A stretch of DNA of 64,000 nt. Origin: a candidate division FCPU426 bacterium (GTDB taxonomy: Bacteria; Oederibacteriota; Muellerivitia; Muellerivitales; Muellerivitaceae). This document shows, one piece after another, positions 993-51,078 of the stretch. The first letter of the stretch is position 1. Each line of letters begins with the position of its first letter. The notes below the pieces were generated by a model. That model saw nothing but the letters and a program-made list of their open reading frames with translations. It was not told the origin of the DNA and did not search any database. Where the stretch lies: NCBI GenBank assembly GCA_963847625.1, contig CAWKAR010000045.1:64001-128000 (forward strand), written 5' to 3'. The translations under genes were made by a program, and so were the position numbers.

Positions 993-1137
993 AAAAAACC
1001 AATAAAACTGCCCTTTTAATGCCTATTTATTTTTGGATTAAATCGGCCCTTTTGCCGTCTAGTGAGTATGGAAAGAATCCCCCTAATATAAAAATCGTGA
1101 GAAAATTATCTATATCTTGCTCGCTATGGGCGGACTC
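993..1137 (+). promoter_or_regulatory. Conserved 145-bp upstream leader of SBBP genes, copy 1
   Basis: Collinear with 7111-7255 (aaaaaaccaataaaactgcccttttaatgc...ttttggattaaatc.gcccttttgccgtctag); both end at an ATG encoding MILMKI. Confidence 0.75.
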
Positions 1138-4101
1138 ATGATTCTGATGAAAATATTTCGAAATAGGTTACATCTTTTAAATGCAGGTCTATTTGCCTGC
1201 GTCATCGCGGTATTTGGAATGGGCTTAGTCTCCACAAACAAAAATAATCCTTCCCTTATTTCGCAGAAATCCCATGCTTCTTCCAAAGCCCAACTTGATG
1301 CAGGCACTCGATTAAAACTCAACCAGAATTATGGACATATCCCGCTTTACTTCGAACCCAACGAAGGCCAAACCGATCCCCAAGTCAAATTTATTTCCAG
1401 GGGAAGCGGCTACACCCTCTTTATTACGCCCGCTGAAGCGGTGTATGTATTGAAACGTGGAGATTCCAATCACTCCCTAAACAAGTTTAAAGGTTTTGAC
1501 ACTAAATTTCGAACTCCTAAGTCTTCTCTCCAAACTAATCCACCCGATGTTTTACGTCTGAGATTAGAAGGAGGTAACCGCCTAGCAGAATTCGAGGGGA
1601 TGGAAGAAGCGGAAGGGAAGAGCAATTATTTTATAGGGAACGATCCCAACAAATGGCATACGAATATTCCTAATTACACAAAAGTGAGGATGAAGGAGGT
1701 CTTTCCCGGAATTGATATGGAATATTACGGCGAACAGCGAAAACTAGAGTACGACTTTGTGGTGAAGCCGGGCGCAGACCCAAGCGTCATTGGCCTCAGC
1801 TATGAGGGCGCCAAGAATGCGGAAGTAGATGGGCAAGGGAACCTGTTGTTCCACATGGCCCAAGGGGATGTGGCATTCAAGGCGCCGGTGATTTACCAGA
1901 AGAGAATGAAAAATGGAGAATGGACAATTGAAAATGAAAAGATAGAAGGCCGTTACTCGTTAAAAGCGGATGGGAAAATCGGATTTGAAACGGGGAACTA
2001 TGACAAAACCCTTCCCCTGGTAATCGATCCCCAATTGGATTATTCGACATTCTTGGGTGGAAGCGGTGGCGATGAAGGTTATGCCATCGCTGTGGATGGG
2101 TCGGGGGACGCGTATGTGACCGGTTGTTCCTATTCAACGAATTTTCCCACGACCAGCGGAGCTATTCAGACGGTTAACAACGGATATACTAATGTTTTTG
2201 TGACGGAGCTTAATCCCTCTGGAAGCGCATTGATTTATTCAACCTATCTGGGAGGGAGCGCACAGGATTATGGTTATGGCATCGCGGTGGATGGGTCGGG
2301 GAACGCTTATATCACGGGGCGAATAGCTTCCAAGGATTTTCCCACTACCAGTGGAGCCTTTCAAACGGTGCATGGCGCAGACGGCCCCTATAACGACGCT
2401 TGTGTTGTAAAACTTAATTCCTCTGGAAGCGCCGTGATCTATTCGACGTATCTGGGCGGGAATGGGGATGATTGTGGTTTTGGCATCGCATTGGATGGGT
2501 CGGGAAACGCTTATGTGACTGGATATGCGCAATCAACGAATTTCCCAACGACCAGCGGGGCCTATCAGACGGCATTGGGCGGCACAAACGCTATGAACGT
2601 TTTTGTGTCAGAATTGAATGCAACGGGAAGCGCCCTGGTCTATTCGACTTATTTAGGCGGGAGCGGAAGCGTTTATGGCGATATTGGCCAAGGCATAGTA
2701 TTGGACGGGTCGGGGAATGTTTATGTGACAGGTGCTGCGGCTTCTCAAAATTTTCCCACAACTAGTGGGGCCTATCAAACGGTTTATGATAGTGGCGGGA
2801 ATGATGCATTTGTGGCGAAACTGAAACTGGCGGGCGGCGGGGCGAGTGACTTGATTTATTCTACCTATCTAGGCGGGAATAACTGGGATCAAGGCAATGG
2901 CATCGCGTTGGATGGGTTCGGGAACGCTTATGTAGTTGGCTATACAATATCAACAAATTTTCCTACGACCAGTGGAGCCTTTCAGACGGCTAGAGGTGGA
3001 ACGAATGGGAATTGTTATAACGTTTTTGTCACGGAGTTGAACCCCTCATTAAGCGCCTTGGTATATTCGACCTATTTGGGCGGGTACAATCCCGATGGCG
3101 ATTTTGGATTTGCCATTGCCGTAGATTCGGACGGTGATGCATATGTGACGGGATTGACCTCTGGAAATTTCCCCATAACAAGTGGTGCTTATCAAACGAC
3201 TTTTGAAGGTGGCATACCCAATCCCTGGCCAAGTGACGTTTTTGTGACGGAATTAAATGCCACGGGGAGTGCTCTGATCTATTCGACTTATTTAGGCGGT
3301 GTCAGGGACGATTCCGGCCAAGGCATAGCATTGGATGGGTCGGGTAATGTTTATGTGACTGGATATGCAGGCTATAATTTTCCTACTACCAGTGGGGCGT
3401 ATCAGACGGTTTTAGGTGTCTCTCCGAACGTATTTATAGCAAAGTTGGACAATAGCGATTTTTATACACCCACAATTACACCATGGCCGGCAGGTGTTCC
3501 TACCTATACTTCTACCAATACACCAACAATAACGAACACTCCCACAATTACCAAGACTCCGACTTTAACCCTAACTCCCACGCCCACTGCTTCCACCCTG
3601 CCCGGCGTACCGACGGCTACCTACACAAGCATATGCTTTCCTATTACCTGTACACCGACGCCTACACTAACACCCGGCAGTCCGTCGGCTACTCCAACCT
3701 TGACAAACACACCAACTGTTACTAATACACCTACGGTAACTCTTACGCTAACAATGACCAATATTCCCCCCCCGACAAACACCATAACGCCTACATTAAT
3801 ATTTCCTCCTTCCTGCTCCGAGTTCTCCGTCTCGAAAAATACGTTTTTCCCGTCCAACGGGCCAGTATCGATTTATGTTTCGTACTGTCAGTACCCAGGT
3901 GCCTTTTCCTTGGGGATTTATAATTCCGCTGGGGAGCACATTAAAACCCTAGATGCGCGACATTTGGAAGCACCCATTATCGCTTCTTACCTTTGGGACG
4001 GACGGAACAAATACGGTGATCCCTGCGCCAGCGGGGTCTATATTCTTTACCTCGTCGAACCCTATAACCGGCAAATCAAAAGAGTGCTTCTTTTAAAGTA
4101 A
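1138..4101 (+). CDS. Secreted SBBP-repeat beta-propeller protein with Thr-rich linker and FlgD-Ig-like C-terminal domain
   Basis: Hydrophobic N-terminus, [10 protein letters not shown] domain, repeated YSTYLGG...[14 protein letters not shown]...NFPTTSGAYQT units, TPT linker, YNSAGEHIKTL...WDGRNKYG...SGVY tail; start 1138 chosen by alignment with the paralog at 7256. Confidence 0.9.
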   Translation: MILMKIFRNRLHLLNAGLFACVIAVFGMGLVSTNKNNPSLISQKSHASSKAQLDAGTRLKLNQNYGHIPLYFEPNEGQTDPQVKFISRGSGYTLFITPAEAVYVLKRGDSNHSLNKFKGFDTKFRTPKSSLQTNPPDVLRLRLEGGNRLAEFEGMEEAEGKSNYFIGNDPNKWHTNIPNYTKVRMKEVFPGIDMEYYGEQRKLEYDFVVKPGADPSVIGLSYEGAKNAEVDGQGNLLFHMAQGDVAFKAPVIYQKRMKNGEWTIENEKIEGRYSLKADGKIGFETGNYDKTLPLVIDPQLDYSTFLGGSGGDEGYAIAVDGSGDAYVTGCSYSTNFPTTSGAIQTVNNGYTNVFVTELNPSGSALIYSTYLGGSAQDYGYGIAVDGSGNAYITGRIASKDFPTTSGAFQTVHGADGPYNDACVVKLNSSGSAVIYSTYLGGNGDDCGFGIALDGSGNAYVTGYAQSTNFPTTSGAYQTALGGTNAMNVFVSELNATGSALVYSTYLGGSGSVYGDIGQGIVLDGSGNVYVTGAAASQNFPTTSGAYQTVYDSGGNDAFVAKLKLAGGGASDLIYSTYLGGNNWDQGNGIALDGFGNAYVVGYTISTNFPTTSGAFQTARGGTNGNCYNVFVTELNPSLSALVYSTYLGGYNPDGDFGFAIAVDSDGDAYVTGLTSGNFPITSGAYQTTFEGGIPNPWPSDVFVTELNATGSALIYSTYLGGVRDDSGQGIALDGSGNVYVTGYAGYNFPTTSGAYQTVLGVSPNVFIAKLDNSDFYTPTITPWPAGVPTYTSTNTPTITNTPTITKTPTLTLTPTPTASTLPGVPTATYTSICFPITCTPTPTLTPGSPSATPTLTNTPTVTNTPTVTLTLTMTNIPPPTNTITPTLIFPPSCSEFSVSKNTFFPSNGPVSIYVSYCQYPGAFSLGIYNSAGEHIKTLDARHLEAPIIASYLWDGRNKYGDPCASGVYILYLVEPYNRQIKRVLLLK

Positions 4102-4139
4102 AAACCCCCTTCGAGCTATAATTGGTCTAGAGAATAATC

Positions 4140-6935
4140 ATGCCGAAAGTATCCCGGAATCATATGCGGCTGTTGAACACCGGTCTATTTACCTGCGTCT
4201 TATTGGTTTTTGGTATGGGTTTAGTCTCCACAGGCCGAAACAATTCTTCCCCCGCCCAGCAAAAAAACCATGCTTCTTCCAAAGCCCAACTTGATGCAGG
4301 CACTCGATTAAAACTCAACCAGAATTACGGAAAAATCCCACTTTACTTTGAACCCAACGAAGGACAATACGATCCCCAAGTCAAATTCATTTCCCGGGGA
4401 AGCGGCTACACCCTCTTTATTACGCCCGCTGAAGCGGTGTATGTATTGAAACGTGGAGATTCCAATCATTCACCCCGGCAATCTACCCTGAGTAAACGAA
4501 GTGCATCGAAGGGCTCCTCACTCCTAACTGCTTCCCCCGAGGTTTTGCGCCTGAGGCTCGAGGGCGGGAATCGCATAGCTTTTTTCGAAGGGATGGAAGA
4601 AGCGGAAGGGAAAAGCAATTATTTCATCGGGAATGACCCATCCAAATGGCGAACTAACATCACCCACTATGCCAAGGTGAACTTGAAAGAGGTCTATCCC
4701 GGTATTGACATGGTGTATTACGGTTCACAGCAAAAGCTGGAATACGACTTTATGGTAAAACCCGGTGCGGATCCAAAAGAAATTAGGCTGAAAATTGAGG
4801 GTGCGGAGAGTTCCAATGTGAATGACTCGGGCAACCTTCAAATGAGTGTCGGCGGCTGCCAAGTGGTTTTCAAAGCACCTGCTATTTATCAGGAGGACCG
4901 CAACGGAAAAGTAACCATCATGGGAAAATATGTAAAGACCGGTAGTAACGAATTAGGTTTCGAGGTGAAGGGATATGATCATTCAATACCATTGGTGATC
5001 GATCCAGTTTTGGATTATTCCACCTTCCTTGGCGGGACCGCGAGCGAAGGAGCCAATGCCATCGCGGTGGATGGGTCGGGGAACGCTTATGTTACGGGAG
5101 AGACCGGGTCCATTAATTTTCCCACGACCGCCGGGGCCTACCAGACGGCTTCTGGCGACATTTTTGTGACGGAGCTAAATGCAAATGGAAGCGCCCTGGT
5201 CTATTCGACCTTTCTGGGCGGGATCGGAGGGAATGAAGCCTTTGGCATCGCGGTGGATGGGTTGGGTAACGCTTATGTGACGGGGCAGACCAGCGGAAGT
5301 TTCCCTACGACCAGTGGGGCTTATCAGACGATTTTCGGTGCTGGTACTTATGACGCCTTTGTGACCAAACTCAATCCGTCAGGTAATACACTCCTTTATT
5401 CAACTTATCTGGGCGGAAGCGGTTGGGATCAAGGCGATGGGATCGCGGTGGATTCAAGCGGGAGCGCCTACGTGACGGGTTATACCTATTCCACCGATTT
5501 CCCCACCACAACGGGTGCTTACCAAACCACTTCGGGAGGAACCTGGGACGCCTTCATCACCAAGTTGAATGCGGCGGGCACGGCCTTGGTCTATTCCACC
5601 TATCTGGGCGGAAGCTACATTGACTATGGTTATGGAATTGCTGTGGATTCAAGCGGAAACGCCTACGTAACGGGTACTACTGCGTCCACCGATTTTCCCA
5701 CCACGGCTGGGGTTTACCAAACAACTTTTGGGGGAAGCTGGGACGTCTTTGTGGCCAAGCTGAATGCGGCGGGTACGGTCTTAGTCTATTCCACGTACCT
5801 AGATGGGAGTTCAAGTGAAGAAGGTTATGGAATAACCGTGGATTCAAGTGGGAACGCCTACGTGACTGGAAGTACGGAATCAACGAATTTCCCAACAACC
5901 AGTGGGGCCTATCAGACGAATTATGGCGGCAATATTGATGCGTTTGTGACGAAGTTGAATAACACGGGAAGCGCCTTGTTGTATTCAACCTATTTGGGCG
6001 AGGGTAATGAGGATCATGGAAATGCCATCGCGGTGGATGGCTCTGGAAACGCATATGTGACGGGATATACGCAATCCACCAATTTCCCCACGACCAGTGG
6101 GGCTTATCAGACGGTTTTTGGAGGGAATCAGGATGCTTTTATGATGGAGCTGAATGCCGGGGGTAGCAACCTGATCTATTCGACATACTTGGGCGGGGGT
6201 GCGTCCGAATCCGGTCTGGGCATTGCGGTGGATGGGTCGGGGAACGCCTACGTGACGGGGTATACGCAATCCACCAATTTCCCCACGACCAGTGGGGCCT
6301 ATCAGACGGCTTTTGGAGGAACCTGTGACGTCTTCGTGGCAAAGCTTTCTTTTCCCACCCCAACACCGACACCTACCATGACTCCCACACCGACGGCGAC
6401 AGACAGCCCGACGAACAGTTCGACTTCGACCCCGAGTAGTACACCCACGCCCACGGCTACATACAGTTCGACATTGACGAATACCCTGACCAACACACCC
6501 ACCCTAACAAACACCTCCACTGCCACGGGTACTTATACAATGACGAATACACTGACCCCCACATACACCCCGACGCTGACCAGCACCTCCACGCAAACGA
6601 TGACCCCAACAGTTTCAAATATCCCGACCTCGACATCACTTCCATCCTGCTCTGGGTTCTCCATCTCGAAGAACGCGTTTTTCCCCTCCAATGGGCCGGT
6701 CTCGATCTATGTTTCCTATTGCAAGTATCCGGGCGATTATTCCTTAAAGGTTTATAACTCCGCCGGGGAACACGTCAAAACGCTGGACGAGAGGCATTTA
6801 GAGGCACCAGTAGTGGCTTCTTACCTTTGGGATGGCAGGAATAAATATGGTGATCCCTGCGCCAGTGGCGTCTATATTTTGTACCTCGTGGAGCCTTATG
6901 ACCGTGAGACCAAAAGGGTGCTTCTTTTAAGGTAG
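4140..6935 (+). CDS. Secreted SBBP-repeat beta-propeller protein (paralog 2)
   Basis: Same architecture as 1138-4101, with a closely similar C-terminal domain. Confidence 0.9.
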   Translation: MPKVSRNHMRLLNTGLFTCVLLVFGMGLVSTGRNNSSPAQQKNHASSKAQLDAGTRLKLNQNYGKIPLYFEPNEGQYDPQVKFISRGSGYTLFITPAEAVYVLKRGDSNHSPRQSTLSKRSASKGSSLLTASPEVLRLRLEGGNRIAFFEGMEEAEGKSNYFIGNDPSKWRTNITHYAKVNLKEVYPGIDMVYYGSQQKLEYDFMVKPGADPKEIRLKIEGAESSNVNDSGNLQMSVGGCQVVFKAPAIYQEDRNGKVTIMGKYVKTGSNELGFEVKGYDHSIPLVIDPVLDYSTFLGGTASEGANAIAVDGSGNAYVTGETGSINFPTTAGAYQTASGDIFVTELNANGSALVYSTFLGGIGGNEAFGIAVDGLGNAYVTGQTSGSFPTTSGAYQTIFGAGTYDAFVTKLNPSGNTLLYSTYLGGSGWDQGDGIAVDSSGSAYVTGYTYSTDFPTTTGAYQTTSGGTWDAFITKLNAAGTALVYSTYLGGSYIDYGYGIAVDSSGNAYVTGTTASTDFPTTAGVYQTTFGGSWDVFVAKLNAAGTVLVYSTYLDGSSSEEGYGITVDSSGNAYVTGSTESTNFPTTSGAYQTNYGGNIDAFVTKLNNTGSALLYSTYLGEGNEDHGNAIAVDGSGNAYVTGYTQSTNFPTTSGAYQTVFGGNQDAFMMELNAGGSNLIYSTYLGGGASESGLGIAVDGSGNAYVTGYTQSTNFPTTSGAYQTAFGGTCDVFVAKLSFPTPTPTPTMTPTPTATDSPTNSSTSTPSSTPTPTATYSSTLTNTLTNTPTLTNTSTATGTYTMTNTLTPTYTPTLTSTSTQTMTPTVSNIPTSTSLPSCSGFSISKNAFFPSNGPVSIYVSYCKYPGDYSLKVYNSAGEHVKTLDERHLEAPVVASYLWDGRNKYGDPCASGVYILYLVEPYDRETKRVLLLR

Positions 6936-6939
6936 GCAT

Positions 6940-7083
6940 GTTTCCGGGAATGGCACCCTCTCTTGGGATTTGAAGGATATGGACGGTACCCCTGTGGCCG
7001 ACGGACTTTATTACCTCCGGGTGAAGGCGGTTGAGGGGGGGACCACGACCGTGAAAATCCTGAAAGTCCTCGTTCTGCGCTGA
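6940..7083 (+). pseudogene. Orphan 47-codon C-terminal sorting-domain fragment
   Basis: Translates [47 protein letters not shown], 44/47 identical to the end of 7256-10366 (nt 10223-10366); different frame from the upstream gene. Confidence 0.9.
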
Positions 7084-7110
7084 GCGGAAATTCAGCTCGC
7101 GAATTCTCCC

Positions 7111-7255
7111 AAAAAACCAATAAAACTGCCCTTTTAATGCTTATTTTTTTTGGATTAAATCTGCCCTTTTGCCGTCTAGAGGGTGTGGAAAGAGACAACC
7201 CTAACAGCCAAATCGTGGGAAAATATCCTATATCTGGCTCACCCTGGACGGGCAA
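7111..7255 (+). promoter_or_regulatory. Conserved 145-bp upstream leader of SBBP genes, copy 2
   Basis: Collinear homolog of 993-1137. Confidence 0.75.
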
Positions 7256-10200
7256 ATGATCCTGATGAAGATATCGCGCAATAGATTGCGTCTTTTAAAT
7301 GCAGGTCTATTGGCCTGCGTCATTCTGTTATTTGGAATGGGGTTGGTCTCCACAAGCCGAAATGGTTCTTCTCACGCCCCGAAAGAATCTAATATCTCTT
7401 CCAAAGTTGCTCAGCCGAATCAATCAGCGCTCATGAAACTTAATCAGAATTATGGACATATCCCGCTTTACTTCGAGCCCAACGAGGGACAATTCGATCC
7501 CCAAGTGAAGTTTCTCTCCCGGGGAAGTGGATATTCCCTATTCATCACGCCCGCCGAAGCGGTGTTTGTCCTAAAGCATAGCGAGCCTAAAGATTTTTCG
7601 AATAAAGGTGGAAGACTTGGTCGTAAATTCCCAATTCCTAATTCCTCATTCCTAATTACCAAAACTTCACACCCAACTGTTCCGCCCGATGTTTTGAGAT
7701 TGAGATTGGAAAATGGAAATAGGTTGGCTGAATTCGAGGGAATGGAAAAGGCAGTAGGGAAGAGCAATTACTTTATCGGGAATGACTCATCCAAGTGGCA
7801 CACCAATATACCCAACTATACCAAGGTAAAGATGAAGGATGTCTATCCCGGGGTCGACATGGTGTATTACGGCAATCAACGTAAGTTGGAATACGATTTC
7901 GAGGTAAAGCCAGGGGCGGACCCAAGTGCCATTAATCTCAGTTACGAAGGCGCCAAGAACGCTGAAGTGGACGGCCAAGGGAATCTGATATTCCACATGG
8001 AGAAAGGGGATGTGGCTTTCAAAGCGCCTGTAGCCTACCAAAAAAAAATGAAGAATGGAGAATGGACAATTGAAAACGAAAAAATAGAAGGCCGTTATTC
8101 ATTAAAAGCTGATGGGAAAATTGGTTTTAAGATTGGAAACTATGACAAAACCCTTCCTCTGGTGATCGACCCCCAATTGGATTATTCAACTTATTTGGGT
8201 GGGAATATCGAAAATGAGGGCAGTGGCATCGTGGTGAATGGATCGGGGAATGCTTATGTGACAGGTTGGTCTATGGGAGATTTCCCCACAACAAGCGGAG
8301 CCTTTCAGACGGCTTTGGATGGTGGTATGGATGCTTTTGTGGCGGAGATAAGTGCTGATGGAAGCGCCTTGGTCTATGCGACCTATCTGGGTGGCAGCGG
8401 GGGTGCTCAAGGCAATGGCATCGCGTTGGATGGGTCGGGAAACGCTTATGTGGTTGGAAGTGCCGGCGCAAATTTTCCCACAACCAATGGAGCCTATCAA
8501 CCAGCTTATCAGAGTTTATATAGCCAATTGAATGCTTTTGTGACGAAACTGAATACTTCGGGAAGCGCCTTGGTCTATTCGACCTATCTTGGCGGGAGCG
8601 GGGAATCTAATCAAGGGGATGTTGGCACTGGCGTTGCGGTGGATGGGTCAGGAAATGCTTATGTGTCGGGTCATACGTTTTCACCGAATTTCCCCACTAC
8701 CGGCGGGGCCTATCAGACAGCTTTAGGTGTCAGCGGTGATATTTTTATTACGAAACTGAATGCCTCAGGAAGCAACCTTATTTATTCGACTCTTCTGGGT
8801 GCGAACGGTGGCGGTGTGTGTAATGGCATCGCTGTGGATGGATCGGGGAACGCTTATGTGACGGGCTGGGTAGATGACATAGATTACCCCATAACCAGTG
8901 GGGCTTATCAGACGGATTTTGGTGGTGGGGGTATTGACGCTTTTTTGACAGAGTTTAATGCAACTGGAAGCTCCTTGGTCTATTCGACCTATCTGGGTGG
9001 TAGCGAGGACACTCTTGGCAATGGCATCGCTGTGGATTCCTCGGGAAATGCCTACGTTACAGGATACACTGGAGAGGGGTTTCCAACGAATAGTGGGGCC
9101 TTTCAGACGGCTTATGGCGGCAATACCGACGTTTTTGTGGTGAAGTTGAATCCGGCGGGTGACGGGGCCAGCGACTTGATCTATTCAACCTATTTGGGAG
9201 GAAATGGGGACGATCAAGGAAACGCCATCGCGGTGGATGGGTTGGGGGACGCTTATGTAACGGGCTTTACGAATTCAACGGATTTCCCCACGACCAGTGG
9301 CGCCTTTCAAACGTCTTTTCAGACGTCCGCAGGTGACATCCACGGAAATACTAACGCTTTTATGACGGAACTGAATCCTTCGGGAAGCTTCCTGATTTAT
9401 TCGTCCTATCTTGGCGGGAGTGGGGACGTGTACGGGGGTGATCTAGCCAATGGAATTGCATTGGATGGCTTAGGAAACGTTTATGTGACAGGAGAAACAG
9501 AATCATCCGATTTCCCGACTACTAACGGCGCCTTTCAAACGTCTAATGGTGGCGCATCTGTTGACGGTTTTGTTACAAAGTTTGACGTGAGTGATTTTTA
9601 TACACCCACGCCCTGGCCGACGGGCGTTCCCACATATACTTTTACATCCACACCTACCCTTGCGTTTACACCAACGCCCACCTCTACCCCAACTCCCACC
9701 ATGACAAACACGCCAACCTATACTTCGGGTGTTTTAACTTTTACACCGACTAACACGCCAACTTCCACCGCGACAAACACATCCACGAAAACGACAACCC
9801 CTACAATCACATTGACACCGACAATTACTCCCACTGATACTCCGCCTCCTTCACCAGACCCTACTTGGACAGTAACAACTTCTCCAACTTTCACCCCGAC
9901 AAATACCTCAATCAACACATCTACGAGGACGATGACGCCAACAACGACCCCAACGCCCACCCGCAAAGCTACGTGCACAAACACACCCACTTCAACGGCC
10001 ACCCCAACATGCACTGTTGGTGTGATACCCGCCACTAACACGCCAACACCCACAGCAACACGGACCTCGACTGTGACAGGTGTGGTTATCAGCCTGTCTT
10101 ATCCAAATCCTGTTAAAGGCGCAGGGCCGGTTTCCATAAATGTCCAAGGGCCGCCAGGAACTAACTTTATCTGTGACGTCTTCACGACGGCCTTCCGAAA

Positions 10201-10366
10201 AGTGGCCAGCGCTACATGGCTTGTTTCCGGGAACGGCACCCTCTCATGGGACTTGAAGGATATGGACGGCACCCCTGTGGCCGACGGGCTTTATTACCTC
10301 CGGGTAAATGCGGTTGCGGGGGGAACCACGACGGTGAAAATCCTGAAAGTCCTCGTTATCCGCTAA
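7256..10366 (+). CDS. Secreted SBBP-repeat beta-propeller protein (paralog 3) with YPNP-type C-terminal domain
   Basis: SBBP repeats, long TPT linker, SYPNP...VFTTAFRKV...ADGLYYLRV...KVLVIR*. Confidence 0.9.
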
Positions 10367-10562
10367 CGTTCTTTTGCCAACCGATGCGGTTTTAGAACCC
10401 CAAATCCCTAATACCTCCATGGGGTTAACTTTTAACCTGTTTTGCCTCTTTTTTTGTAGAACCCCAATAAATCCCACTTTTAAAATACCACGAAGCAGAT
10501 ACCCATACCTGGGGTTAGTAGTCCTGCCCGCAGGGGACCGCGAACCCAGTGCAGGGGACCGG

Positions 10563-10976
10563 GAACCTAGTAGCAGAACCCGGTGAACCTAGTAGCAGAT
10601 TCCGGGGAACCTAGTAGCAGAACCCGTGAACCTAGTAGCAGATTCCGAGGTACCTAGTAGCAGATACCGGGGAATCTAGTAGCAGAACCCGGTGAACCTA
10701 GTAGCAAATTTCGGGGTACTTAGTAGCAGATACCGGGGAACCTAGTAGCAGAACCCGGTGAACCTAGTAGCAGAACCCGTGAACCTAGTAGCAGATTCCG
10801 GGGTACCTTGTAGCAAAACCCGTGAACCTAGTAGCAGATTCCGAGGTACCTAGTAGCAGATACCGGGGAATCTAGTAGCAGAACCCGGTGAACCTAGTAG
10901 CAGATTTCGGGGTACTTAGTAGCAGATACCGGGGAATCTAGTAGCAGAACCCGGTGAACCTAGTAGCAAATTTCGG
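10563..10976. repeat. Non-coding tandem array, units 1-19, consensus G(A/T)A(C/T)(C/T)TAGTAGCAGA(A/T)(C/T/A)CCGG(G/T), 21-22 bp
   Basis: 18 complete units counted by hand (three are 21 bp) plus unit 19 cut by the IS; two degenerate 21-bp units just upstream (about 10530-10570). Confidence 0.97.
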
Positions 10977-12329
10977 TAGTGTATTTTTGGGGGGTGTAAA
11001 AAGAAGCGGGCGTAACATGGTGTTTGTCTAGAACGCCATATCCTTTTTGTGAAAGGAAGTTACGCCCATGAAGAATATACACCTAGCCTTACAGGCCTTG
11101 GCAAGAGAGAAAACTCAAGCCTGGGTGAAATCTGTGGTTGGAAGCCGTGAGGTCGGCGAATGGGTAGGAGAAGCCCTGAATCAACAACTTTCGGAGGCTT
11201 TCAACGCCCAGTTGAGGAAAGAACGGGATGAAGCGTTGAATCGCCAGCCATATGAAAGGCAGGAAGGAAGCCGGTATCGCAATGGGTTCAAGCGGATCCT
11301 AGTTGCTGGATTTCTGGGACCTTTGGTGCTGAAAAAGCCAGTTTTGAGGAAAGGCGGATTTGTTTCGGAAACTCTGACGGCATTGAGAGCTGGAAGCCAA
11401 GCCTTGGTGGGATTTCTGGGAATGAAGTTCTGGCTAAAGGGGGCTTCCACCCGGTCGGTGGCGGCAGGGCTAAACGAGGCCTTTGGAACTAAGCTGACAG
11501 CCAATCACGTTAGCCAGATGACCAATGCCTTAAAACCTACCCTGGAAGCCTGGGCTAAACGGCTATTACCCACCGGGATTCAATACTTGTACTTGGATGC
11601 CCTTTACCTGACGGTCAGGCGACAGGAAGCCGGTGTGAAACAAGCTTTGCTGGTGGCCATCGGGGTGGATGGGAACCTGAAGAGGCATTTTCTGGGGTAC
11701 ATGGTGGGAGACCGTGAAAGTGAGTCGGCCTGGGAAGCCATGTTGGAAGACTTGTTGAACAGAGGCTTAGACAGAAAAAGCTTACGAATGGTGGTATCCG
11801 ACGCCCACGGTGGAATTGTCGCGGCGGTGAAAAATCGTCTTGGAATCCCCCATCAATTATGCTTGGTACACAAGATGGAAAACGTCCGGTGTCGAGTGGC
11901 CCAGAAGGACAGAAAGGCATTCATGGCTGATTTCAAAGCGGTGTATTGGGCCGAAAGTCGAGAGAACGCCTTGGTGGCACTAGGAAGTCTCAAGGCTAAG
12001 TGGGCCAAAACCTATCCCAAAGCAGTGGAGATGGCAGAGGAAAAATTCGACTCCTATACGCAGTTTTTCCAGGAAGACCGGAAGTTTTGGAAGATTACCC
12101 GCACCAGCAACCTAATCGAACGGCTTAACGAGGAGTTAAGGAAAAGGCTGAGGCCAGCGGGGATGATGCAGAACGAGCTGGAGATCGCCAAGTTGGTGTG
12201 GGGGGTAACCGAAACCCAACAACAAAATTGGAACAAGACTAAAGCCTACACCTCAAGAAGGGAGGCGGAGGTTCAAGCTGCTTGATTAAGACGCCCGTGG
12301 AAATTTACACCCAAAATATTGACGCAGGG
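10975..12329 (+). mobile_element. IS256-family insertion sequence
   Basis: Transposase ORF; imperfect 26-bp terminal IRs sharing GGGTGTAAA; target duplication CAAATTTC at 10967-10974 and 12330-12337 (ends uncertain by 1-2 bp). Confidence 0.92.
11068..12285 (+). CDS. IS256-family (Mutator-type) DDE transposase
   Basis: YRNG, YLYLDAL, VVSDAHGGI, QLCLVHKMEN and RTSNLIERLNEELRKR motifs; 405 aa. Confidence 0.95.
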   Translation: MKNIHLALQALAREKTQAWVKSVVGSREVGEWVGEALNQQLSEAFNAQLRKERDEALNRQPYERQEGSRYRNGFKRILVAGFLGPLVLKKPVLRKGGFVSETLTALRAGSQALVGFLGMKFWLKGASTRSVAAGLNEAFGTKLTANHVSQMTNALKPTLEAWAKRLLPTGIQYLYLDALYLTVRRQEAGVKQALLVAIGVDGNLKRHFLGYMVGDRESESAWEAMLEDLLNRGLDRKSLRMVVSDAHGGIVAAVKNRLGIPHQLCLVHKMENVRCRVAQKDRKAFMADFKAVYWAESRENALVALGSLKAKWAKTYPKAVEMAEEKFDSYTQFFQEDRKFWKITRTSNLIERLNEELRKRLRPAGMMQNELEIAKLVWGVTETQQQNWNKTKAYTSRREAEVQAA

Positions 12330-12450
12330 CAAATTTCGGGGTACTTAGTAGCAGATACCGGTGAACCTAGTAGCAGATTCCGGGGAACCTAGTAGCAGAT
12401 ACCGGGGAATCTAGTAGCAGAACCCAGTGAACCTAGTAGCAGATTTCGGG
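12330..12450. repeat. Continuation of the 22-bp array (rest of unit 19, units 20-24)
   Basis: Units start at 12341, 12363, 12385, 12407 and 12429; a degenerate unit (acacctattggcata) follows. Confidence 0.97.
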
Positions 12451-12489
12451 ACACCTATTGGCATATTGGCTTTTTAAAAGGAGTTTTAT

Positions 12490-14043
12490 ATGGCTGGTAT
12501 AAAACAAGAATCCCTATCTTGGATCGATCAAATTAAAGACCTAAAAGCCTATCTTAAGAAAAAGCCCTCCGCTAAAAGAATTGAGCTTAGAGAAGCTCTC
12601 AAACTTAGCGATGGTCGAATCACCATTCTTTACTCCATTGAAACCTGTTTCGACGAACTTGCCTTGAAAAAGGTTCGTCAGGCGGCAAAAGGGGCATCCC
12701 CCTTTACCCTGTCCTCAAACGCCGCCCTGGCCTTGGCAAAGTTGAAAGGGAGAGTCCAGGATTTTCCCAAGATATTCCACCAGGTTTTGGATTTTGTTTT
12801 GGCCCAAAGATTGATTCCGATGAAAATCGAAGCCCTGGTGGAGTGGATTATAGAAGGTAAACCAATTAGTGGATTCGACCCCACCCGGGTCAAGAGAAAG
12901 AGCCCGAAAGGCCCCTCCTTGGGACCCAGGGAGGTTCGGGAAGAAGCCGCCCCAATAGGGAATAAATCCGATGTCCAAACGCCAGGGGCGGCCGTTGGCC
13001 GGGAGGGGGAATTACCGCCCCAAAAGCCGGGGGAAAAACCGGACTGGAAGGGCATTAGGGAAGCTATTTACGGGGCCGCGACTTTGGTGTTCATCATATT
13101 GTTCGCGAGGTGCGCGTGGCATGATTTTAAAACCTGGGAGGGCGCGCAAACCCATTCTGATGCCGCGGCCACGCCGGCAGTCGCCAATAATCCAAGCGGT
13201 TCGAATGAGGCCACGAATGCAGGAAGTAAGTTAGAAGTTAGGAGTGAGGAGTTAGGAGTTAAGGCGAACAACCAACCTACCTCAATTCAAAATTCGGGCG
13301 CGCCAGCGCCCGTTGTTGCTTGGAATGCTTCCCTCGAAACCGAAACCCAAATGGACAATGAACTTTTCCCCTTGCCCGATTACTGCGTCATCAAGCCCAT
13401 CCTGCCCTTGCCGGCGGTGAATATGGACGCGGTAAAAGCCGGGAATTTATTGGCTCTTTTCCAGGATGTCGACAAATACTCGGTCTGGTACGGGAACGAG
13501 AGAGTGACCGTCGAATCAGCCCCCGTCAACCCCGCCTTCCTGGCTCTTTTTTTCAAGGACAAGGGACCGGTGGAAATAAATTGGAATACCCTGAAAGCCA
13601 TTCATTGCGATGAAGCGCAGGTGTTCGGGGAACACACCGGGGAGACCCTGTACCAATGCGGGTTGGTTTCGTCCGGCTTGGAAAAGGCCGTCGAAATCGA
13701 ATGTACCGCGCTTGATGATTTCAACAACCTGGTATCGGCCCTGTTTTTTTGGGCCAAGAACGTGACGCCGTCGGGACTGCCTTACCTTCACCAGGGAACC
13801 GTGTTCGACAGCCAAGCGCTGGTCAAGGTGGTATGGGCCGGAAGCCCGGCGGACAAGGCGGGTTTGAGACTAAACGACATGGTTTGGGGATTGGACCAGG
13901 ACGGCGACCGACAACAAAAACCCATCGCCGTGGAAAAGGGTTTGGATGCCCTCGAAGCGGGAAGGCATGCGCTATACGTGATCCGGGGAGGGAGGGTGTC
14001 CCCGGAAACGCCCAGGACGAGGCTTGAGTTGATGGTTCCATAA
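12490..14043 (+). CDS. Bitopic membrane protein: N-terminal ParB/Spo0J-like HTH domain, single TM helix, C-terminal PDZ-like domain
   Basis: RBS AAGGAG; QESLSWID...ELREALKLSDGRITILYSI...LSSNAALALAKL...QVLDFVLAQRLIPMKIEALVE follows the ParB DNA-binding-domain pattern; TM AIYGAATLVFIILFA; VKVVWAGSPADKAGLRLNDMV is PDZ-like. Confidence 0.7.
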   Translation: MAGIKQESLSWIDQIKDLKAYLKKKPSAKRIELREALKLSDGRITILYSIETCFDELALKKVRQAAKGASPFTLSSNAALALAKLKGRVQDFPKIFHQVLDFVLAQRLIPMKIEALVEWIIEGKPISGFDPTRVKRKSPKGPSLGPREVREEAAPIGNKSDVQTPGAAVGREGELPPQKPGEKPDWKGIREAIYGAATLVFIILFARCAWHDFKTWEGAQTHSDAAATPAVANNPSGSNEATNAGSKLEVRSEELGVKANNQPTSIQNSGAPAPVVAWNASLETETQMDNELFPLPDYCVIKPILPLPAVNMDAVKAGNLLALFQDVDKYSVWYGNERVTVESAPVNPAFLALFFKDKGPVEINWNTLKAIHCDEAQVFGEHTGETLYQCGLVSSGLEKAVEIECTALDDFNNLVSALFFWAKNVTPSGLPYLHQGTVFDSQALVKVVWAGSPADKAGLRLNDMVWGLDQDGDRQQKPIAVEKGLDALEAGRHALYVIRGGRVSPETPRTRLELMVP

Positions 14044-15088: not shown

Positions 15089-15423
15089 TGCCTAGAAATT
15101 ACAACTTTTCAAATAGGCCGGATTTTGGAAATGGCGCGAGGTGTCCATTTTTTCAGGGAAACTCCAGCCTTCGCCCCAACCGCGGCACCCGCATAAAAAT
15201 TCCCAAACGTCCTTGCCGTTCCTAAAGGTTTTCCTTTTATTCCTCAGCCCCACACCCTTGCATCTCCATCTTTAAAAGTTGCCCTAAGGAATAGTGTGGA
15301 ATAAGCTATATCAACGTTTTTAAGATTTTTTTACCCTAGGTATCCATGCGCCGGTTCACTATAAAAATTAAAATGATAATCTGTGCAATACCAAACTCTA
15401 TAAATGCTTTAAGGAAGGTTGGC

Positions 15424-16686
15424 ATGCAGAAGATTTTATTTCGATTGAGTTCCGGCCTAATGCTATTGGCGTTTTTAGGGTTATTTCCGGCCGCATGCGG
15501 CAAGAAAGGCGTCACCGTGACGACCCTGGCGGGGACAGGGAATGCCGGATGGAACAATGGTACGGGGACCGACGCTTCGTTTTCTTATCCCTATGGGGTC
15601 GCGGTTGATTCCACTGGAAATGTTTACGTCGCGGATTGGGGCAACAACCTGATCCGGAAAATAACCGCTACGGGTGAGGTGACGACCTGGGCGGGCGGCG
15701 GGTCGGGTACTGCGACCAATGGTACGGGAACCTCCGCAACGTTTTGGATCCCCACGGGAGTTGCGGTTGATTCTAACGGTAATGTTTACGTCGCGGACCA
15801 AGGCAACCACTTAATCCGGAAGATCGACTCAAATGGCGTGGTGACCACCTTGGCGGGAAGGGCAGGTGTTGTTGGGTCCTCGGATGGGCCGGCGAAAGAC
15901 GCTACCTTCAATTTGCCCACTGGAGTCGCTGTCGATGCCGCCGGGAATGTTTACGTGGCCGATTCGGGCAACCATGTGATCCGAAAAATTTCCGAAGGGG
16001 GTGTCGTGACGACCTTGGCTGGTTCCGCGGGCGTGACCGGCTCCGGCGACGGGACGGGAATCGCCGCGGATTTTAACACGCCCTTCGGGGTCGCGGTTGA
16101 TGCTTCCGGGAATGTTTATGTCGCCGATTACGGCAACCATCTGATCCGTAAAATCAATTCGGCGGGGTTGGTGACGACCCTGGCGGGGACCGGGGTGGTT
16201 GGGTCCGCCAACGGGCCGGCGACCGCCGCCCAGTTCTTCAATCCCGAGGGAATCGCGGTTGATTCCTCCGGGAATGTTTTTGCCGGGGATTCGGGCAACC
16301 ATTTGATCCGGAAAATCACACCCGACGGGATGGTCTCGACCCTGGCGGGGACGGGGCAAGCGGGTTATGCGGACGGACCCACCATTGTCCCATCGTTTTC
16401 GTGGCATTTTTGGAAATCTGTCATCGGATGGTTCCGAAATGTCAACGCCGGCGCCCCGGTGCAGATTATCGGGGGGGCCATGGGGGTTACCACCGGCGGT
16501 TTATCGTCTCCCCCGACACCTGGGAACCAGGGGATGCCCCAGGCGACTCCGGCGGGGACTGCCATGCCCCCCAGCAGACCGGTGGTTCCAGCGTCGTTCC
16601 AGTGGCCCGCGGGAATCGCGGTTGATTCCTCGGGAACTGTTTACGTGGCGGACCGGGACAACCATATGGTCCGGAAAATTAAATAA
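15424..16686 (+). CDS. NHL-repeat beta-propeller lipoprotein
   Basis: Signal peptide ending FPAA-CGKK; repeats of FNxPxGVAVDSSGNVYVADxGNHLIRKI; RBS-like AGGAAGG before ATG 15424. Confidence 0.9.
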   Translation: MQKILFRLSSGLMLLAFLGLFPAACGKKGVTVTTLAGTGNAGWNNGTGTDASFSYPYGVAVDSTGNVYVADWGNNLIRKITATGEVTTWAGGGSGTATNGTGTSATFWIPTGVAVDSNGNVYVADQGNHLIRKIDSNGVVTTLAGRAGVVGSSDGPAKDATFNLPTGVAVDAAGNVYVADSGNHVIRKISEGGVVTTLAGSAGVTGSGDGTGIAADFNTPFGVAVDASGNVYVADYGNHLIRKINSAGLVTTLAGTGVVGSANGPATAAQFFNPEGIAVDSSGNVFAGDSGNHLIRKITPDGMVSTLAGTGQAGYADGPTIVPSFSWHFWKSVIGWFRNVNAGAPVQIIGGAMGVTTGGLSSPPTPGNQGMPQATPAGTAMPPSRPVVPASFQWPAGIAVDSSGTVYVADRDNHMVRKIK

Positions 16687-16729
16687 CTTTAAAGAAGGTT
16701 GGCATGCGCCGATTCTTTATAAAAATTAA

Positions 16730-16908
16730 GGTAAGTATCCTTTTACAACAAGTAAAAGCAAAAAGATATGGAACCGCCGATCAAATCCGATGGACGCCGA
16801 TAAGTTTGAGAAAGCCTTAAACTATAAGCCGTTATCGGCGCGTGCGGAGCACGTCGGTCGTTATCCGCGGTAAAAAAATTTCTTTACGGTCGTGAAGGTA
16901 TAGTCACC
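16730..16908. mobile_element. Putative 179-bp MITE with internal palindrome
   Basis: Imperfect TIRs (14/20), flanking AAAATTAA/AAAATAAA, and an uninterrupted homologous site at 15346-15392. Confidence 0.6.
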
Positions 16909-17032
16909 AAAATAAAATGATAATCGGTGCTATACCGCGCCGGTTCCCCTATGGAACCGACACATCAAAACATGCGCCTCGGTTTGAAGCCCCGGCGCAG
17001 GTGCTCCTTTAACATCTTTGTGGAAGGTTGGC

Positions 17033-18091
17033 ATGCGCCGAACTTTATTCCCTCTGGGTTCCAGCCTTGCGCTATTAGTTGTTTTTGGTTTATTCCCATC
17101 CGCTTGCGGAAAAAGAAGCGGCGCAGTGACGACCCTGGCGGGAAATATCTTGGCTGGGTTCGCCGATGGAAAGGGAAGAGAAGCAACGTTTACTCATCCT
17201 GGTGGTGTCGCGGTTGATTCTTCCGGCAATGTTTACGTCGCGGATACTGAAAACCAACTCATCCGTAAAATCACAGCTGACGGGGTGGTGTCGACCCTGG
17301 CGGGGTCGGCGGGGGTCACCGGGGAAAGCAACGGAACGGGAACCGCCGCCTCGTTCAATCATCCCACTGGAGTCGCGGTCGATTCATCCGGGAATGTTTA
17401 TGTCGCGGACTCCAACAACAACCGGATACGGAAAATCACCCCGACGGGCGTGGTAACGACCCTGGCGGGGTCCGGTTCAGTTGGTTCCGGCAATGGGACT
17501 GGTACCTTCGCATCGTTCAATTGGCCCCGCGCGGTCGCTGTCGATTCTTCGGGAAATGTTTACGTCGCGGATGCGGCGAACCGATTGATCCGGAAAATCA
17601 CCCATGAGGGCGTGGTAACGACCCTGGCTGGGTCGGGATCTCAAGGGTCTTCCAATGGGCAGGGAACATCGGCATTGTTCAACCAGATTTGGGGGATCGC
17701 GGTTGATTCCCCGGGAAATGTTTACGTGGCGGACACTTTCAACCATCTGATCCGGAAAATCACCCCTGCCGGTTTGGTGTCAACCCTGGCGGGGTCGGGG
17801 GCGCAAGGATCTGCCAACGGAACGGGCCCCGCGGCAGCCTTTTCTTATCCTGCCGGCGTCGCCGTTGATGCTTCCGGGATTGTTTATATCGCGGATTACC
17901 ATGACTTCCTGATCCGGAAAATTACCGCCGGGGGAGTGGTGACGACCCTGGCAGGGACGGGATCTCCGGGGGCTGTCAACGGGATAGGGACCGACGCATC
18001 GTTCAATAAACCCACCGGAATCGCGGCCGATTCCTCCGGTACTGTTTACATCGCGGATACCTTCAATAACTTGATCCGAAAAATCCAATAA
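17033..18091 (+). CDS. NHL-repeat beta-propeller lipoprotein (paralog)
   Basis: Signal peptide ending FPSA-CGKR; six NHL repeats; same GGAAGGTTGGCATG start context as 15424. Confidence 0.9.
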   Translation: MRRTLFPLGSSLALLVVFGLFPSACGKRSGAVTTLAGNILAGFADGKGREATFTHPGGVAVDSSGNVYVADTENQLIRKITADGVVSTLAGSAGVTGESNGTGTAASFNHPTGVAVDSSGNVYVADSNNNRIRKITPTGVVTTLAGSGSVGSGNGTGTFASFNWPRAVAVDSSGNVYVADAANRLIRKITHEGVVTTLAGSGSQGSSNGQGTSALFNQIWGIAVDSPGNVYVADTFNHLIRKITPAGLVSTLAGSGAQGSANGTGPAAAFSYPAGVAVDASGIVYIADYHDFLIRKITAGGVVTTLAGTGSPGAVNGIGTDASFNKPTGIAADSSGTVYIADTFNNLIRKIQ

Positions 18092-44465: not shown

Positions 44466-44864
44466 ATGAAAAAATTGGTCATTGCGATTTTGGTTTTGAT
44501 AGTCTTGTTTTTCCTGGCGTTGAACACTTCCATGATGGCTGATCAAGCTTTGAAATGGGTTAAAGAAAATCCTAAGGATCCCCACGCGCCAAAGGTTCTT
44601 TATGACGCGGCACGCTGGTGCGATATATTGGGTGATAATAAAAAAGCCTTGGAAGTTTATTGGGACCTTTATCAACAATATCCTGAAAACTCAGCTTTGT
44701 CCGCAGCAGCTTTATATTACAGCGCCCAAATTGAAGTGGATACGAGCGTTTCAAAACGTCTAGCGGATCCGTTCTTGGCAATCATTTTTAACCAGTATTC
44801 TGGTGAAAGTGATTGGGTGGGAAAGGCCCGAAAGTTACAGGATGAGGTGAATTATGTTCGTTAA
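44466..44864 (+). CDS. Small exported TPR-like protein
   Basis: Signal or anchor MKKLVIAILVLIVLFFLAL; helical repeats (LYQQYPENS...ALYYSAQI). Confidence 0.7.
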   Translation: MKKLVIAILVLIVLFFLALNTSMMADQALKWVKENPKDPHAPKVLYDAARWCDILGDNKKALEVYWDLYQQYPENSALSAAALYYSAQIEVDTSVSKRLADPFLAIIFNQYSGESDWVGKARKLQDEVNYVR

Positions 44865-45831
44865 ATACGATCGCTGGCTTGTTTTCTACTTTATAGGTTT
44901 GATTACCTTAAGTTGGGGTTCATGTGGTTTTGCTAAGACTATTGAGGTGGAAGAAGATTCTGAAAGCTTGTCGGCATCACCCACCCCTGTCGCTGTCTCG
45001 CCTGCACAAAAAACTCAAAAAACAACGGCCAAATCAATTACAACTAAAACCAAACCGGTTTTAAATAATAATGACACTTTAGAAGCTTCACCATCTGGTT
45101 CTCTGACTGCGCGGGTCCGGGCCGGAGATAATATCAGCTTTTATTATTTTACCAAGGCTGGCTTCGTGGCCAACCAACCTTCTCAAATTCCTTCCATTGG
45201 AAAGATCGTGGGTGATCTCAGCGAAAACGAAACATCGGGTTCTGGGGATATAAGTTACAGCATGGCGAAAAAACCCTACGTTGAAATTTCCTCCAAAGTG
45301 GAATTGAAAAAAGGTGATTTGCTGGTTGTATATCAGTTTGGCCCTGACAAATTAAACGAACCCAGATCGAATTTTACGGGTTTTTTGGTTGAAAATAATG
45401 CAATCGTCAAAGTGAGTAGTGCCCAAAAAAAATATTGCGAAATCGAAATCGTGAAGTCCTTCACTCCTTTTCATGCCGGAGACCATGTTAAATATTACAG
45501 TGATGAGTTGCAAAGATGGAGAAAGGCTCAAACAAAAAAATCTATGCCTAACAAAGAAGTGCGGTGTTTTGTCGCGGGGGGTGATCCGCAAAAAAGCGGT
45601 TATTCTCAAACCGATTTCATTGTGTTGACGGCCGGTTCCAATAACGGTGTTGTTGAAGGCCAAACCTTTCAAATATGCCAACCCGTGAGGAACTCTGGAA
45701 TAAGCGATGAGCTTCATGTCCCCAGGGGTATGGCCCGCGTTTTTTATGCCGGACCAAATTATTCGATGGCCCAAATCCTTTCTAGCCATGAAGCCATCCA
45801 AAAGGGGTTTGAGGCGATTTACCGGCCTTAG
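44854..45831 (+). CDS. Exported protein with tandem FlgT-C/TsaP-like beta domains
   Basis: Signal peptide; LKKGDLLVVY...IVKSFTPFHAGD and IVLTAGSNNGVVEGQTFQI...SMAQILSS...IQKG. Confidence 0.55.
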   Translation: MFVKYDRWLVFYFIGLITLSWGSCGFAKTIEVEEDSESLSASPTPVAVSPAQKTQKTTAKSITTKTKPVLNNNDTLEASPSGSLTARVRAGDNISFYYFTKAGFVANQPSQIPSIGKIVGDLSENETSGSGDISYSMAKKPYVEISSKVELKKGDLLVVYQFGPDKLNEPRSNFTGFLVENNAIVKVSSAQKKYCEIEIVKSFTPFHAGDHVKYYSDELQRWRKAQTKKSMPNKEVRCFVAGGDPQKSGYSQTDFIVLTAGSNNGVVEGQTFQICQPVRNSGISDELHVPRGMARVFYAGPNYSMAQILSSHEAIQKGFEAIYRP

Positions 45832-45853
45832 GTTGGATCGGGCTAGGCCCAGC

Positions 45854-46690: not shown

Positions 46691-46722
46691 TTTAAAAATA
46701 GTTTTACCGAGGTTTATGGGTA

Positions 46723-50733: not shown

Positions 50734-50739
50734 GTAAAA

Positions 50740-51078
50740 ATGAAACTACTTCTTTGTGTCATTTCGCCGAAAAAAATCGAACAGGTAAAAAAGGCCCTAT
50801 GGGAAGCGGGCGTGAGAGGTGTTACTCTATCAGAAGGATCGGGTTACGGTTATCAAAAGGTCCAAGTAGATTCGGTTCGCGGAACTGATTACAAGGTACA
50901 ATATCAAGACCGCATCCGTTTGGAAATTGTTTTACCGGATGACGAAGTGGAAGCGGTCATTGACTTGCTGTTGGATAACATCCGGACTGGAAGAATCGGG
51001 GACGGGAAGTTATTTGTTCTTCCGGTTGAGGAGGTTATCCGCGTTCGGACTGGCGAGAGGGGAGAAAGTGGATTATAA
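50740..51078 (+). CDS. P-II family signal transduction protein (GlnB/GlnK-like)
   Basis: 112 aa; GYGYQK, RGTDY T-loop, RTGRIGDGKLFV, IRVRTGERG. Confidence 0.93.
   Translation: MKLLLCVISPKKIEQVKKALWEAGVRGVTLSEGSGYGYQKVQVDSVRGTDYKVQYQDRIRLEIVLPDDEVEAVIDLLLDNIRTGRIGDGKLFVLPVEEVIRVRTGERGESGL

Follow-up and report, generated by a model that had tools for sequence, protein, structure and literature searches.

Type Ib, II and III centromeres and plasmid iterons consist of short head-to-tail repeats upstream of a gene whose product coats them and represses its own synthesis, and the proteins that bind them are small, soluble and of the ribbon-helix-helix or winged-helix type, working with a motor NTPase or a Rep protein. 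The locus described here lies in a 64,000-nucleotide stretch (hereafter, the window) of a candidate division FCPU426 bacterium (contig CAWKAR010000045.1, positions 64,001 to 128,000), in which a tandem array precedes a gene for a 517-amino-acid (aa) protein (12490..14043, + strand). Its repeats are likewise head-to-tail and upstream, but neither a motor NTPase nor a Rep partner is found at the locus. It is proposed, with a probability of about 0.5 and from sequence comparison, that array and gene form a cassette in which an integral-membrane derivative of ParB would zip its own locus to the inner membrane and repress itself.

In the F plasmid, sopC is described as a phased array whose 43-bp repeats correspond to four helical turns and thus keep to the same helical face (PMC3177203). 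The window family resembles F SopB-sopC in that a ParB-family helix-turn-helix (HTH) protein stands beside a tandem array on one face, with a period of 21.4 bp instead of 43 bp, and SopB is among the fold matches of the window N-domain. The sopC sites are described as 16-bp inverted repeats, whereas those of the window family are direct repeats of about 10 bp; unlike SopB-sopC, the window family has no ParA and no CTPase, possesses transmembrane (TM) and periplasmic domains, is chromosomal, carries its array upstream, and comprises many paralogs with private cores. ParB and Noc are reported to use cytidine triphosphate (CTP) for loading numerous protomers from a single site, and Noc to require CTP-dependent spreading for recruiting DNA to the membrane (PMC8429893). 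Noc of Bacillus subtilis, with its NBS sites, is also comparable as a ParB paralog of changed specificity that brings DNA to the membrane at numerous scattered sites (PMC8429893, PMC7383237), and it is both the best Foldseek match of the window N-domain and the best NCBIfam match of the long paralogs described below. As described, however, the amphipathic helix of Noc is CTP-gated and its spreading starts from single 16-bp palindromes, whereas the window protein is predicted to be integral to the membrane, has no CTPase domain and has arrays as its sites. The DNA-binding fold is the same as in chromosomal ParB-parS, KorB and VirB.

A transmembrane transcription regulator is defined by a predicted DNA-binding domain and a predicted TM segment (PMC10269533), and the window family has this architecture, with TM segments called by hydropathy in 31 of 34 short forms (members with no CTPase fold). 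ToxR, TcpP and CadC similarly combine, as described, a cytoplasmic DNA-binding domain, a TM helix and a periplasmic domain in one chain and show lineage-specific expansion; they differ from the window family in their winged-helix domain, where the latter has a ParB-type domain, long phased arrays and no partner or target operon. The main text of the transmembrane-regulator survey contains none of the words ParB, KorB and PDZ (PMC10269533), and that of a 2025 survey of ParB-CTPase fusions contains neither transmembrane nor periplasm (PMC12704722). Short forms are invisible to a CTPase-fold search because they have no such fold; the long paralogs resemble the orphan ParBs described in the latter survey in having no ParA-binding motif and keeping Box II GxxR (PMC12704722). 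No description of the window family was found among the papers listed in searches of the open literature, although the supplements of PMC12704722 and PMC10269533 could list such proteins, and no membrane-spanning ParB-CTPases were found in the open literature searched. Site-specific DNA-membrane tethers are already known as a kind, and it is the anatomy of the window family that is undescribed.

Association of upstream arrays with the short form

Short forms were collected at 81 loci with at least 300 bp of upstream DNA, which were reduced to 58 by collapse at 90% identity. L125, L127, L142, L155, L157, L158 and C37, which were partial or had too little DNA upstream, and L093, a 5′-truncated match, were omitted from this count; arrays were found at the omitted C37 and L093 by Tandem Repeats Finder (TRF). 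An upstream array was present at 57 of the 58 distinct loci, in agreement with the first-pass annotation of the window, made from the sequence alone, which had asked whether homologs carry such arrays. The best upstream period was 21/22, 33, 42/43, 52/53 or 63/64 bp in 57 of the 58, and the lone exception without an adjacent array, C13, has its array 1.5 kb off, behind an insertion sequence (IS). Among metagenome loci, which had been found by protein alone, all 43 that have 300 bp or more of upstream DNA carry arrays. The weakest short-form scores (0.45-0.55) overlap the upper tail of the control (95th percentile 0.525, 486 random upstream regions), and each of these loci has a chain of 6-22 motif copies.

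A comparable upstream array was present at none of 37 long-form loci (30 and a further seven). The 30 gave scores of at most 0.48, apart from one 15-bp repeat, with the best lag inside the helical set in nine, equal to chance, and no palindrome was shared upstream of the 27 long forms listed. Box II GxxR was found in 22 of 26 long forms and in none of 28 short representatives, the ParA-binding motif in none of the 26 long forms, and a TM-like segment (by hydropathy) in 10 of 11 long forms. Loss of the CTP clamp goes along with gain of many phased sites (57/58 versus 0/37).

In the HTH tree the short form is one clade with a support of 100, and the tree of the C-terminal domains mixes short and long forms (15 changes versus 17.6 in shuffles); array and HTH therefore appear to have been exchanged as one module. 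The short form was probably derived from a CTPase-bearing form, since canonical ParB has a CTPase domain.

The long paralogs comprise ParB-CTPase, HTH, TM and extracytoplasmic domains, reach 1200 aa with varied C-termini, and number several per genome in the family of the window organism (L023, L036, L043, L056, L095-L110, L225-L233); as membrane-spanning ParB-CTPases they are a find in their own right. Short members of 219-253 aa (G000 C33:40738-41424; L024, L025, L026) have an HTH and, in most cases, a TM segment, but lack a periplasmic domain; they sit at long 43-bp arrays, and the core type of C33 is the commonest among gene-less arrays in both genomes of the genus.

Organization of the arrays

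Each array unit consists of a non-palindromic core of about 10 bp and a variable spacer. Core spacing averages 21.37 bp, or two helical turns, in 429 of 536 intervals, and a higher-order repeat of 42-43 bp is frequent. The modal base frequency was 0.86 in cores and 0.57 in spacers, the core being better conserved than the spacer at 56 of 57 loci. Cores lie head-to-tail as direct repeats (496 forward and 11 inverted matches), and a near-palindromic 8-mer occurs in 9 of 57 cores, in place of the 16-bp palindromic site of ParABS. Arrays belonging to a gene contain 6-22 sites, run up to the ribosome-binding site and end 19-174 bp before the start codon, with which the last core tends to share its phase.

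In the window, the core TAGTAGCA recurs in 24 units of 21-22 bp, 19 at 10568-10961 and five at 12346-12434 (TRF scores, 494 and 153). Open reading frames (ORFs) of at least 80 aa are absent over the array, which is thus non-coding, and no Rfam family matched at 10300-12600. The last full unit ends at 12450, and the ATG at 12490 follows 39 bp further on. The repeat number, the non-coding character and the gap given in the first-pass annotation were thus reproduced, but the array is not continuous, because an IS256-family element splits it into 19 and 5 units.

Co-variation of the recognition helix and the core

Cores were aligned automatically, with about five misregistered rows left uncorrected. 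The strongest links between amino acids and bases all fell in the HTH, at positions 45, 34, 46, 40, 30 and 41. Position 45 was linked to core position 9 with a z of 9.5 (Thr45 with C9 in 22 of 24, Ser with A in 14 of 19), and Arg41 occurred with A8C9 in 14 of 14 proteins. The parS contacts of ParB are reported to include Q162, S172, R173 and N178, of which R173 recognizes the G that pairs with the inner C in the parS half-site TGTTTCAC (PMC7383237). By register, positions 30, 40, 41 and 46 would correspond to these four residues, and the A8C9 cores of Arg41 proteins resemble the parS half-site, which has AC at its inner end.

When 32 genome loci were used as reference and 25 metagenome loci as queries, the nearest neighbor by residues 41-46 recovered 3.25 of 5 core bases, the best of 130 windows of residues, compared with 2.08 at random, 1.92 with residues 52-135 and 2.51 with residues 1-29; this prediction was not fully blind, because the frame and the Thr45 rule drew on all loci. 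On a tree built without the helix, Thr45 changed 14 times, and an all-branch test gave 14 independent pairs, of which 8.8 were concordant and 0.1 opposite, at the top of 194 controls. Sister proteins with altered helices have altered cores, and distant proteins with similar helices have similar cores. The co-variation that the first-pass annotation had named as a check was therefore found, and each protein very probably binds its own array. Core specificity is not exclusive, since two G023 paralogs share one core.

Domain structure of the 517-aa protein

The window protein consists of a ParB-type HTH domain, a linker, a TM helix, a second linker, a PH-like domain and a PDZ domain. Its first 135 aa (12490..12894, + strand) were assigned, by a structure model and a profile bridge, to the ParB/Noc/KorB-type DNA-binding domain without a CTPase domain, the HTH helices being aa 30-37 and aa 41-53; residues 41-46 of the recognition helix (DGRITI) are encoded at 12610..12627 (+ strand). 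With the model of aa 1-151 (predicted local distance difference test, pLDDT, 83.5), the DNA-binding domains of Noc, ParB, Spo0J, KorB and SopB topped both structure searches. The HTH family profile found the long paralogs, among which 5 of 11 tested carry Pfam ParB_N (E 3e-11 to 3e-5) and 4 of 4 tested match the Noc/ParB NCBIfam models TIGR04285/TIGR00180 (E down to 1e-17). The N-domain was accepted as ParB/Noc-type despite middling fold scores because the profile reaches long paralogs with ParB_N.

The ParB-CTPase domain (Box II GxxR) is missing, as is the ParA linked in ParABS systems. The protein begins at the HTH domain and its hydrophobic segment is internal, which differs from the N-terminal amphipathic helix of Noc. 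A single N-in TM helix is predicted at aa 192-210 (13063..13119, + strand; Kyte-Doolittle mean, 1.8), and the four K/R residues before it and one after suggest this topology; TM calls throughout were made from hydropathy alone. The model of aa 274-517 (pLDDT 93.8) contains a PH-like fold at about aa 310-430, predicted to be extracytoplasmic (13417..13779, + strand), followed by an HtrA-type PDZ domain at about aa 431-517 (13780..14040, + strand). The PH-like fold matched SSRP1 with Z 9.5 and a root mean square deviation of 2.2 over 97 aligned residues, and the matches listed were PH-like throughout. The ParB-like N-terminus without CTPase domain, the one TM helix and the terminal PDZ domain read from the sequence beforehand were all supported, and the PH-like domain between the TM helix and the PDZ domain had been missed.

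Direct searches with the window protein yielded only PDZ_6 in Pfam (E 0.008, below its cut-off) and no match in NCBIfam; PADLOC defense profiles matched none of four proteins, and the ESM Atlas gave no usable match. The HTH, TM and PDZ assignments are supported by models and homology, without a direct Pfam match. A 7-bp repeat tract at 13226-13264 is an in-frame insert missing from the paralogs; eight similar tracts occur in the genome, with many different flanks in other runs, and further short insertions that keep the frame are seen repeatedly in the HTH loops of relatives.

Arrays without an adjacent gene

A genome-wide scan for phased repeats detected 46 arrays in the real genome and none in a block-shuffled copy. 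Nine of the 46 are pieces that belong to seven genes and 37 stand alone, adjoining unrelated genes and built of the cores of paralogs; the expectation that such arrays occur only beside a family gene was not upheld. Gene-less arrays are strand-polarized block mosaics, many with the paralogs' cores or variants of one to two bases, and their cores are fixed and their spacers variable, also in units chosen by phase and not by match. Such arrays were also present in G001, G016, G019, G022 and G023 (20 regions fetched), and in G016 a set of 68 units contained 59 different spacers. The L213 array ends in a ribosome-binding site and an apparent 5′ gene remnant.

Seven of 35 gene-less arrays lie between convergent genes (116 of 884 in the background), promoter positions are not enriched, and the next gene is often more than 400 bp away, the neighbors being unrelated genes. 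Of the 35, 24 face a same-strand gene, as do 16 of the 20 located in tandem gaps. In 37 of 44 cases, which are partly non-independent, the orientation agrees with the strand of most genes nearby. A strict replichore polarity like that of FtsK-orienting polar sequences was unsupported, given the irregular GC skew and the mixed orientations on some contigs.

A second class of non-coding arrays, with periods of 17-20 and 27-28 bp outside the two-turn rule, was seen at G000 C13:119765, C24:43196, C25:55064, C27:181727, C45:133789 and C52:55132.

Distribution and genomic context

The window genome has seven short-form HTH genes and one copy without HTH; an IS interrupts the C13 copy, and the 5′ part of the second C3 copy is missing. 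Searches for the PH-PDZ module found it in 8 of 99 phylum genomes, which all belong to the family of the window organism, and in 95 representatives at E 1e-30 or better among 1.84 billion. The HTH profile matched 18 of 31 genomes of the family. Relatives were not found among viral contigs, plasmids and phages, and a pattern search of genome contigs gave 21 matches, none confirmed as relatives, in a collection that may omit the lineage itself. At 90 loci no conserved neighbor or partner gene was detected, nor was a ParA, Rep, integrase or transposase among the recurrent neighbors; toxin-antitoxin and IS genes are common nearby. An autonomous mobile element, plasmid or phage module was rejected as an identity for the cassette, which shows no recombinase or Rep of its own, no defined ends, and no plasmid or phage relatives.

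The window gene follows three beta-propeller surface-protein genes and precedes an epimerase gene, and in relatives no cassette lies upstream of the epimerase gene (0/4). No parA or rep ORF stands beside it, as had been noted before; the canonical parAB of the genome is on another contig, and ParA-type genes are on other contigs or far off. The contig carries rpoD-, valS- and topA-like housekeeping genes (identified by eye), and the locus is therefore considered chromosomal. The earlier description of the array as centromere-like holds for its anatomy only, the locus being chromosomal, without ParA, and part of a patchy multi-copy family.

The array is preceded by an AT-rich leader, probably a promoter region (10419..10522, + strand), which blastn found at six other array loci of the genome (C13, C48, C3, C38, C12 and C35); no sigma-70 consensus was matched in the + strand of the leader. 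The distal part of the array (10523..10974, + strand) has 19 units with the core CCTAGTAGCAG and two in-phase variant cores at 10523 and 10544, of types known from other arrays of the genome, and the proximal part (12330..12464, + strand) has five units, whose cores start at 12344-12432, and one in-phase variant core at 12454. A Shine-Dalgarno-like AAGGAG follows at 12478..12483 (+ strand).

The IS256-family element (1355 bp, 10975..12329, + strand; PF00872, E 1e-70), with its transposase at 11068-12285, is flanked by an 8-bp target duplication CAAATTTC (10967-10974 and 12330-12337) and is a later insertion into the array. An IS-free allele was not seen, because DNA contigs from three runs span the locus only piecewise. 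Pieces of the locus occur in peat runs, and among the matches listed no RNA dataset contains it. All three IS256 copies and both IS3-like copies are placed in or against arrays, which make up about 0.3% of the genome, in comparison with 0/40 IS30-like and 0/12 IS1380-like copies (family names apart from IS256 assigned by eye). The array-associated elements are those at window 10975-12329, at G000 C50:81250, C3:149642, C34:107600 and C35:7176, and at L216, L219 and L222, and in other strains two further IS256 ends run into array sequence; this suggests targeting by the sequence or by a bound protein.

Three other identities were considered for the array. A CRISPR array was ruled out by cores of about 10 bp and recurrent spacers of 11-12 bp, as opposed to long repeats and unique spacers; a known non-coding RNA was ruled out by the lack of an Rfam match; and an origin from repetitive extragenic palindromes or miniature inverted-repeat transposable elements was rejected, since hairpin units and terminal repeats were not seen and the cores are polarized direct repeats.

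Upstream, window 1117-10366 holds three tandem paralogs of 994, 931 and 1036 aa, of which the third, the only one scanned, has DUF7948, SBBP beta-propeller repeats, a Thr/Pro stalk and a FlgD-like end; similar genes lie directly downstream of the gene-less arrays C28:47461 and C60:57907. A secreted protein of about 240 aa, limited to the genus of the window organism and without an NCBIfam match, is encoded behind four paralogs of the HTH gene in the window genome and behind a single one in G001 (L194:1896-2654, L195:6018-6791 and 2424-3137, L197:2237-2944); it does not follow the window gene. A CRISPR-like array with a period of about 71 bp (L022:53-1463) lies 2.1 kb upstream of a G001 paralog. 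Farther along the window are two NHL-repeat-like lipoprotein genes (15346-18091) and a chemotaxis-type cluster (44854-57629; CheR, CheW, CheC, CheD, CheB and CheA-like, with TPR proteins), all named by eye.

Discussion

If the cassette works as a tether, each protein would bind its own cores as a row along one helix face. The two-turn spacing fits this arrangement, because proteins held in the plane of the membrane could reach only one face of the DNA. The array would substitute for the CTP-driven spreading of ParB and Noc by loading many protomers on one locus, and a patch of the chromosome would be zipped to the inner membrane. Autorepression of the gene would match the number of proteins to the number of sites. 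Gene-less mosaic arrays may be additional sites at which the same paralogs anchor the DNA, and some may be what is left of decayed cassettes; more speculatively, the periplasmic PH-PDZ module might oligomerize or bind an envelope ligand and thereby fix or regulate the anchor.

Several observations weigh against this proposal. Strong short-form matches occur in 9 of 31 genomes of the family and in none of several relatives that are 97-99% complete, and such a patchy form is therefore not core cell-cycle machinery. No hydrophobic segment was called by hydropathy in 3 of 34 short forms, and the PH-PDZ part is missing from several members. The fold scores of the N-domain are middling (Foldseek E 0.054 at best, with probabilities of 0.99-1.0; Z 6.4-7.8 against ParB, KorB, Spo0J and SopB), and a search of PDB sequences with the profile of this domain returned no ParB and three unrelated matches with E above 0.3. 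The all-branch pair test rests on a weakly supported tree, and on starred branches only one to three independent pairs remained and sign tests were not significant. Whole-motif Mantel tests were weak and register-dependent (helix, 0.13-0.14), with residues 21-26 higher in one version (0.2), which physical linkage could explain. Finally, six G016 arrays have the core CCAGTAAAC, for which a matching helix was present in none of the five paralogs found in this genome (89% complete).

Alternative explanations overlap in part with the tether and with one another. The family could consist of one-component regulators like ToxR and CadC, with the PH-PDZ part sensing a periplasmic signal, the HTH controlling its own gene and those downstream of gene-less arrays, and the mosaics integrating several paralogs. 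The architecture that defines a transmembrane transcription regulator (as worded in PMC10269533), the HtrA-like PDZ domain, the position of arrays 19-174 bp from the start codon and the frequent same-strand genes ahead of gene-less arrays (24/35, and 16/20 in tandem gaps) all agree with regulation. Its probability is nevertheless low: gene-less arrays show no depletion between convergent genes (7/35 versus 116/884), their distance to the next gene often exceeds 400 bp, their neighbors are unrelated genes, and no partner or target gene is conserved at the 90 loci. The usual operator, moreover, has fewer sites than the 6-22 of these arrays. Because gene-less arrays are not enriched at promoters, we lean to the tether over a ToxR-like regulator. 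About equally improbable is a selfish cassette that spreads and decays like a mobile element and diversifies its specificity against cross-talk, with gene-less arrays as relics or products of slippage and tethering either serving the cassette or incidental. Its non-syntenic, multi-copy and patchy occurrence, the absence of a cassette upstream of the epimerase gene in all four relatives, the frequency of broken copies, the gene remnant at L213 and the toxin-antitoxin and IS genes nearby would suit such behavior, against which stand the lack of a recurrent transposase, integrase or Rep neighbor, of visible element ends and of matches in viral contigs, plasmids and phages, the intact cores of gene-less arrays, and the core common to two G023 paralogs.

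Least probable by a wide distance is a reading of the arrays as minisatellites to which nothing binds and which were inherited together with the 5′ end of the gene, their co-variation reflecting only linkage and kinship. Such an origin would account for the correlation of residues 10-26 with the motif, for the strict independent-pair test without significance, and for the strong homogenization of units by slippage in the window genome. It is at odds with conserved cores between variable spacers at two-turn spacing, with a signal that peaks at residues 41-46 and not at those nearest the array, with the changed cores of sisters with changed helices and the like cores of distant proteins with like helices, and with long forms that have no arrays.

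Beyond tethering of single loci, a wider reading is offered more tentatively: a chromosome-envelope addressing system in which orthogonal integral-membrane ParB derivatives with private 10-bp codes may anchor dozens of polarized, helically phased and in part mosaic arrays along the chromosome to the inner membrane under control of the PH-PDZ module, the CTP clamp having been traded for the array, and in which the membrane-spanning CTPase ancestors would themselves be an undescribed class.

Since the presence of a binding-site array accompanies loss of the clamp, the family provides a natural experiment on why ParB has a CTP clamp. The 57 matched helix-core pairs make the recognition code of the ParB HTH fold readable, with far more cases than ParB and Noc provide, and those that are orthogonal may be of use for tagging loci. 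To our knowledge, direct attachment of the chromosome to the membrane by an integral membrane protein that has a periplasmic domain has long been discussed, with few clear cases; the window family supplies short, defined parts with which this idea can be probed.

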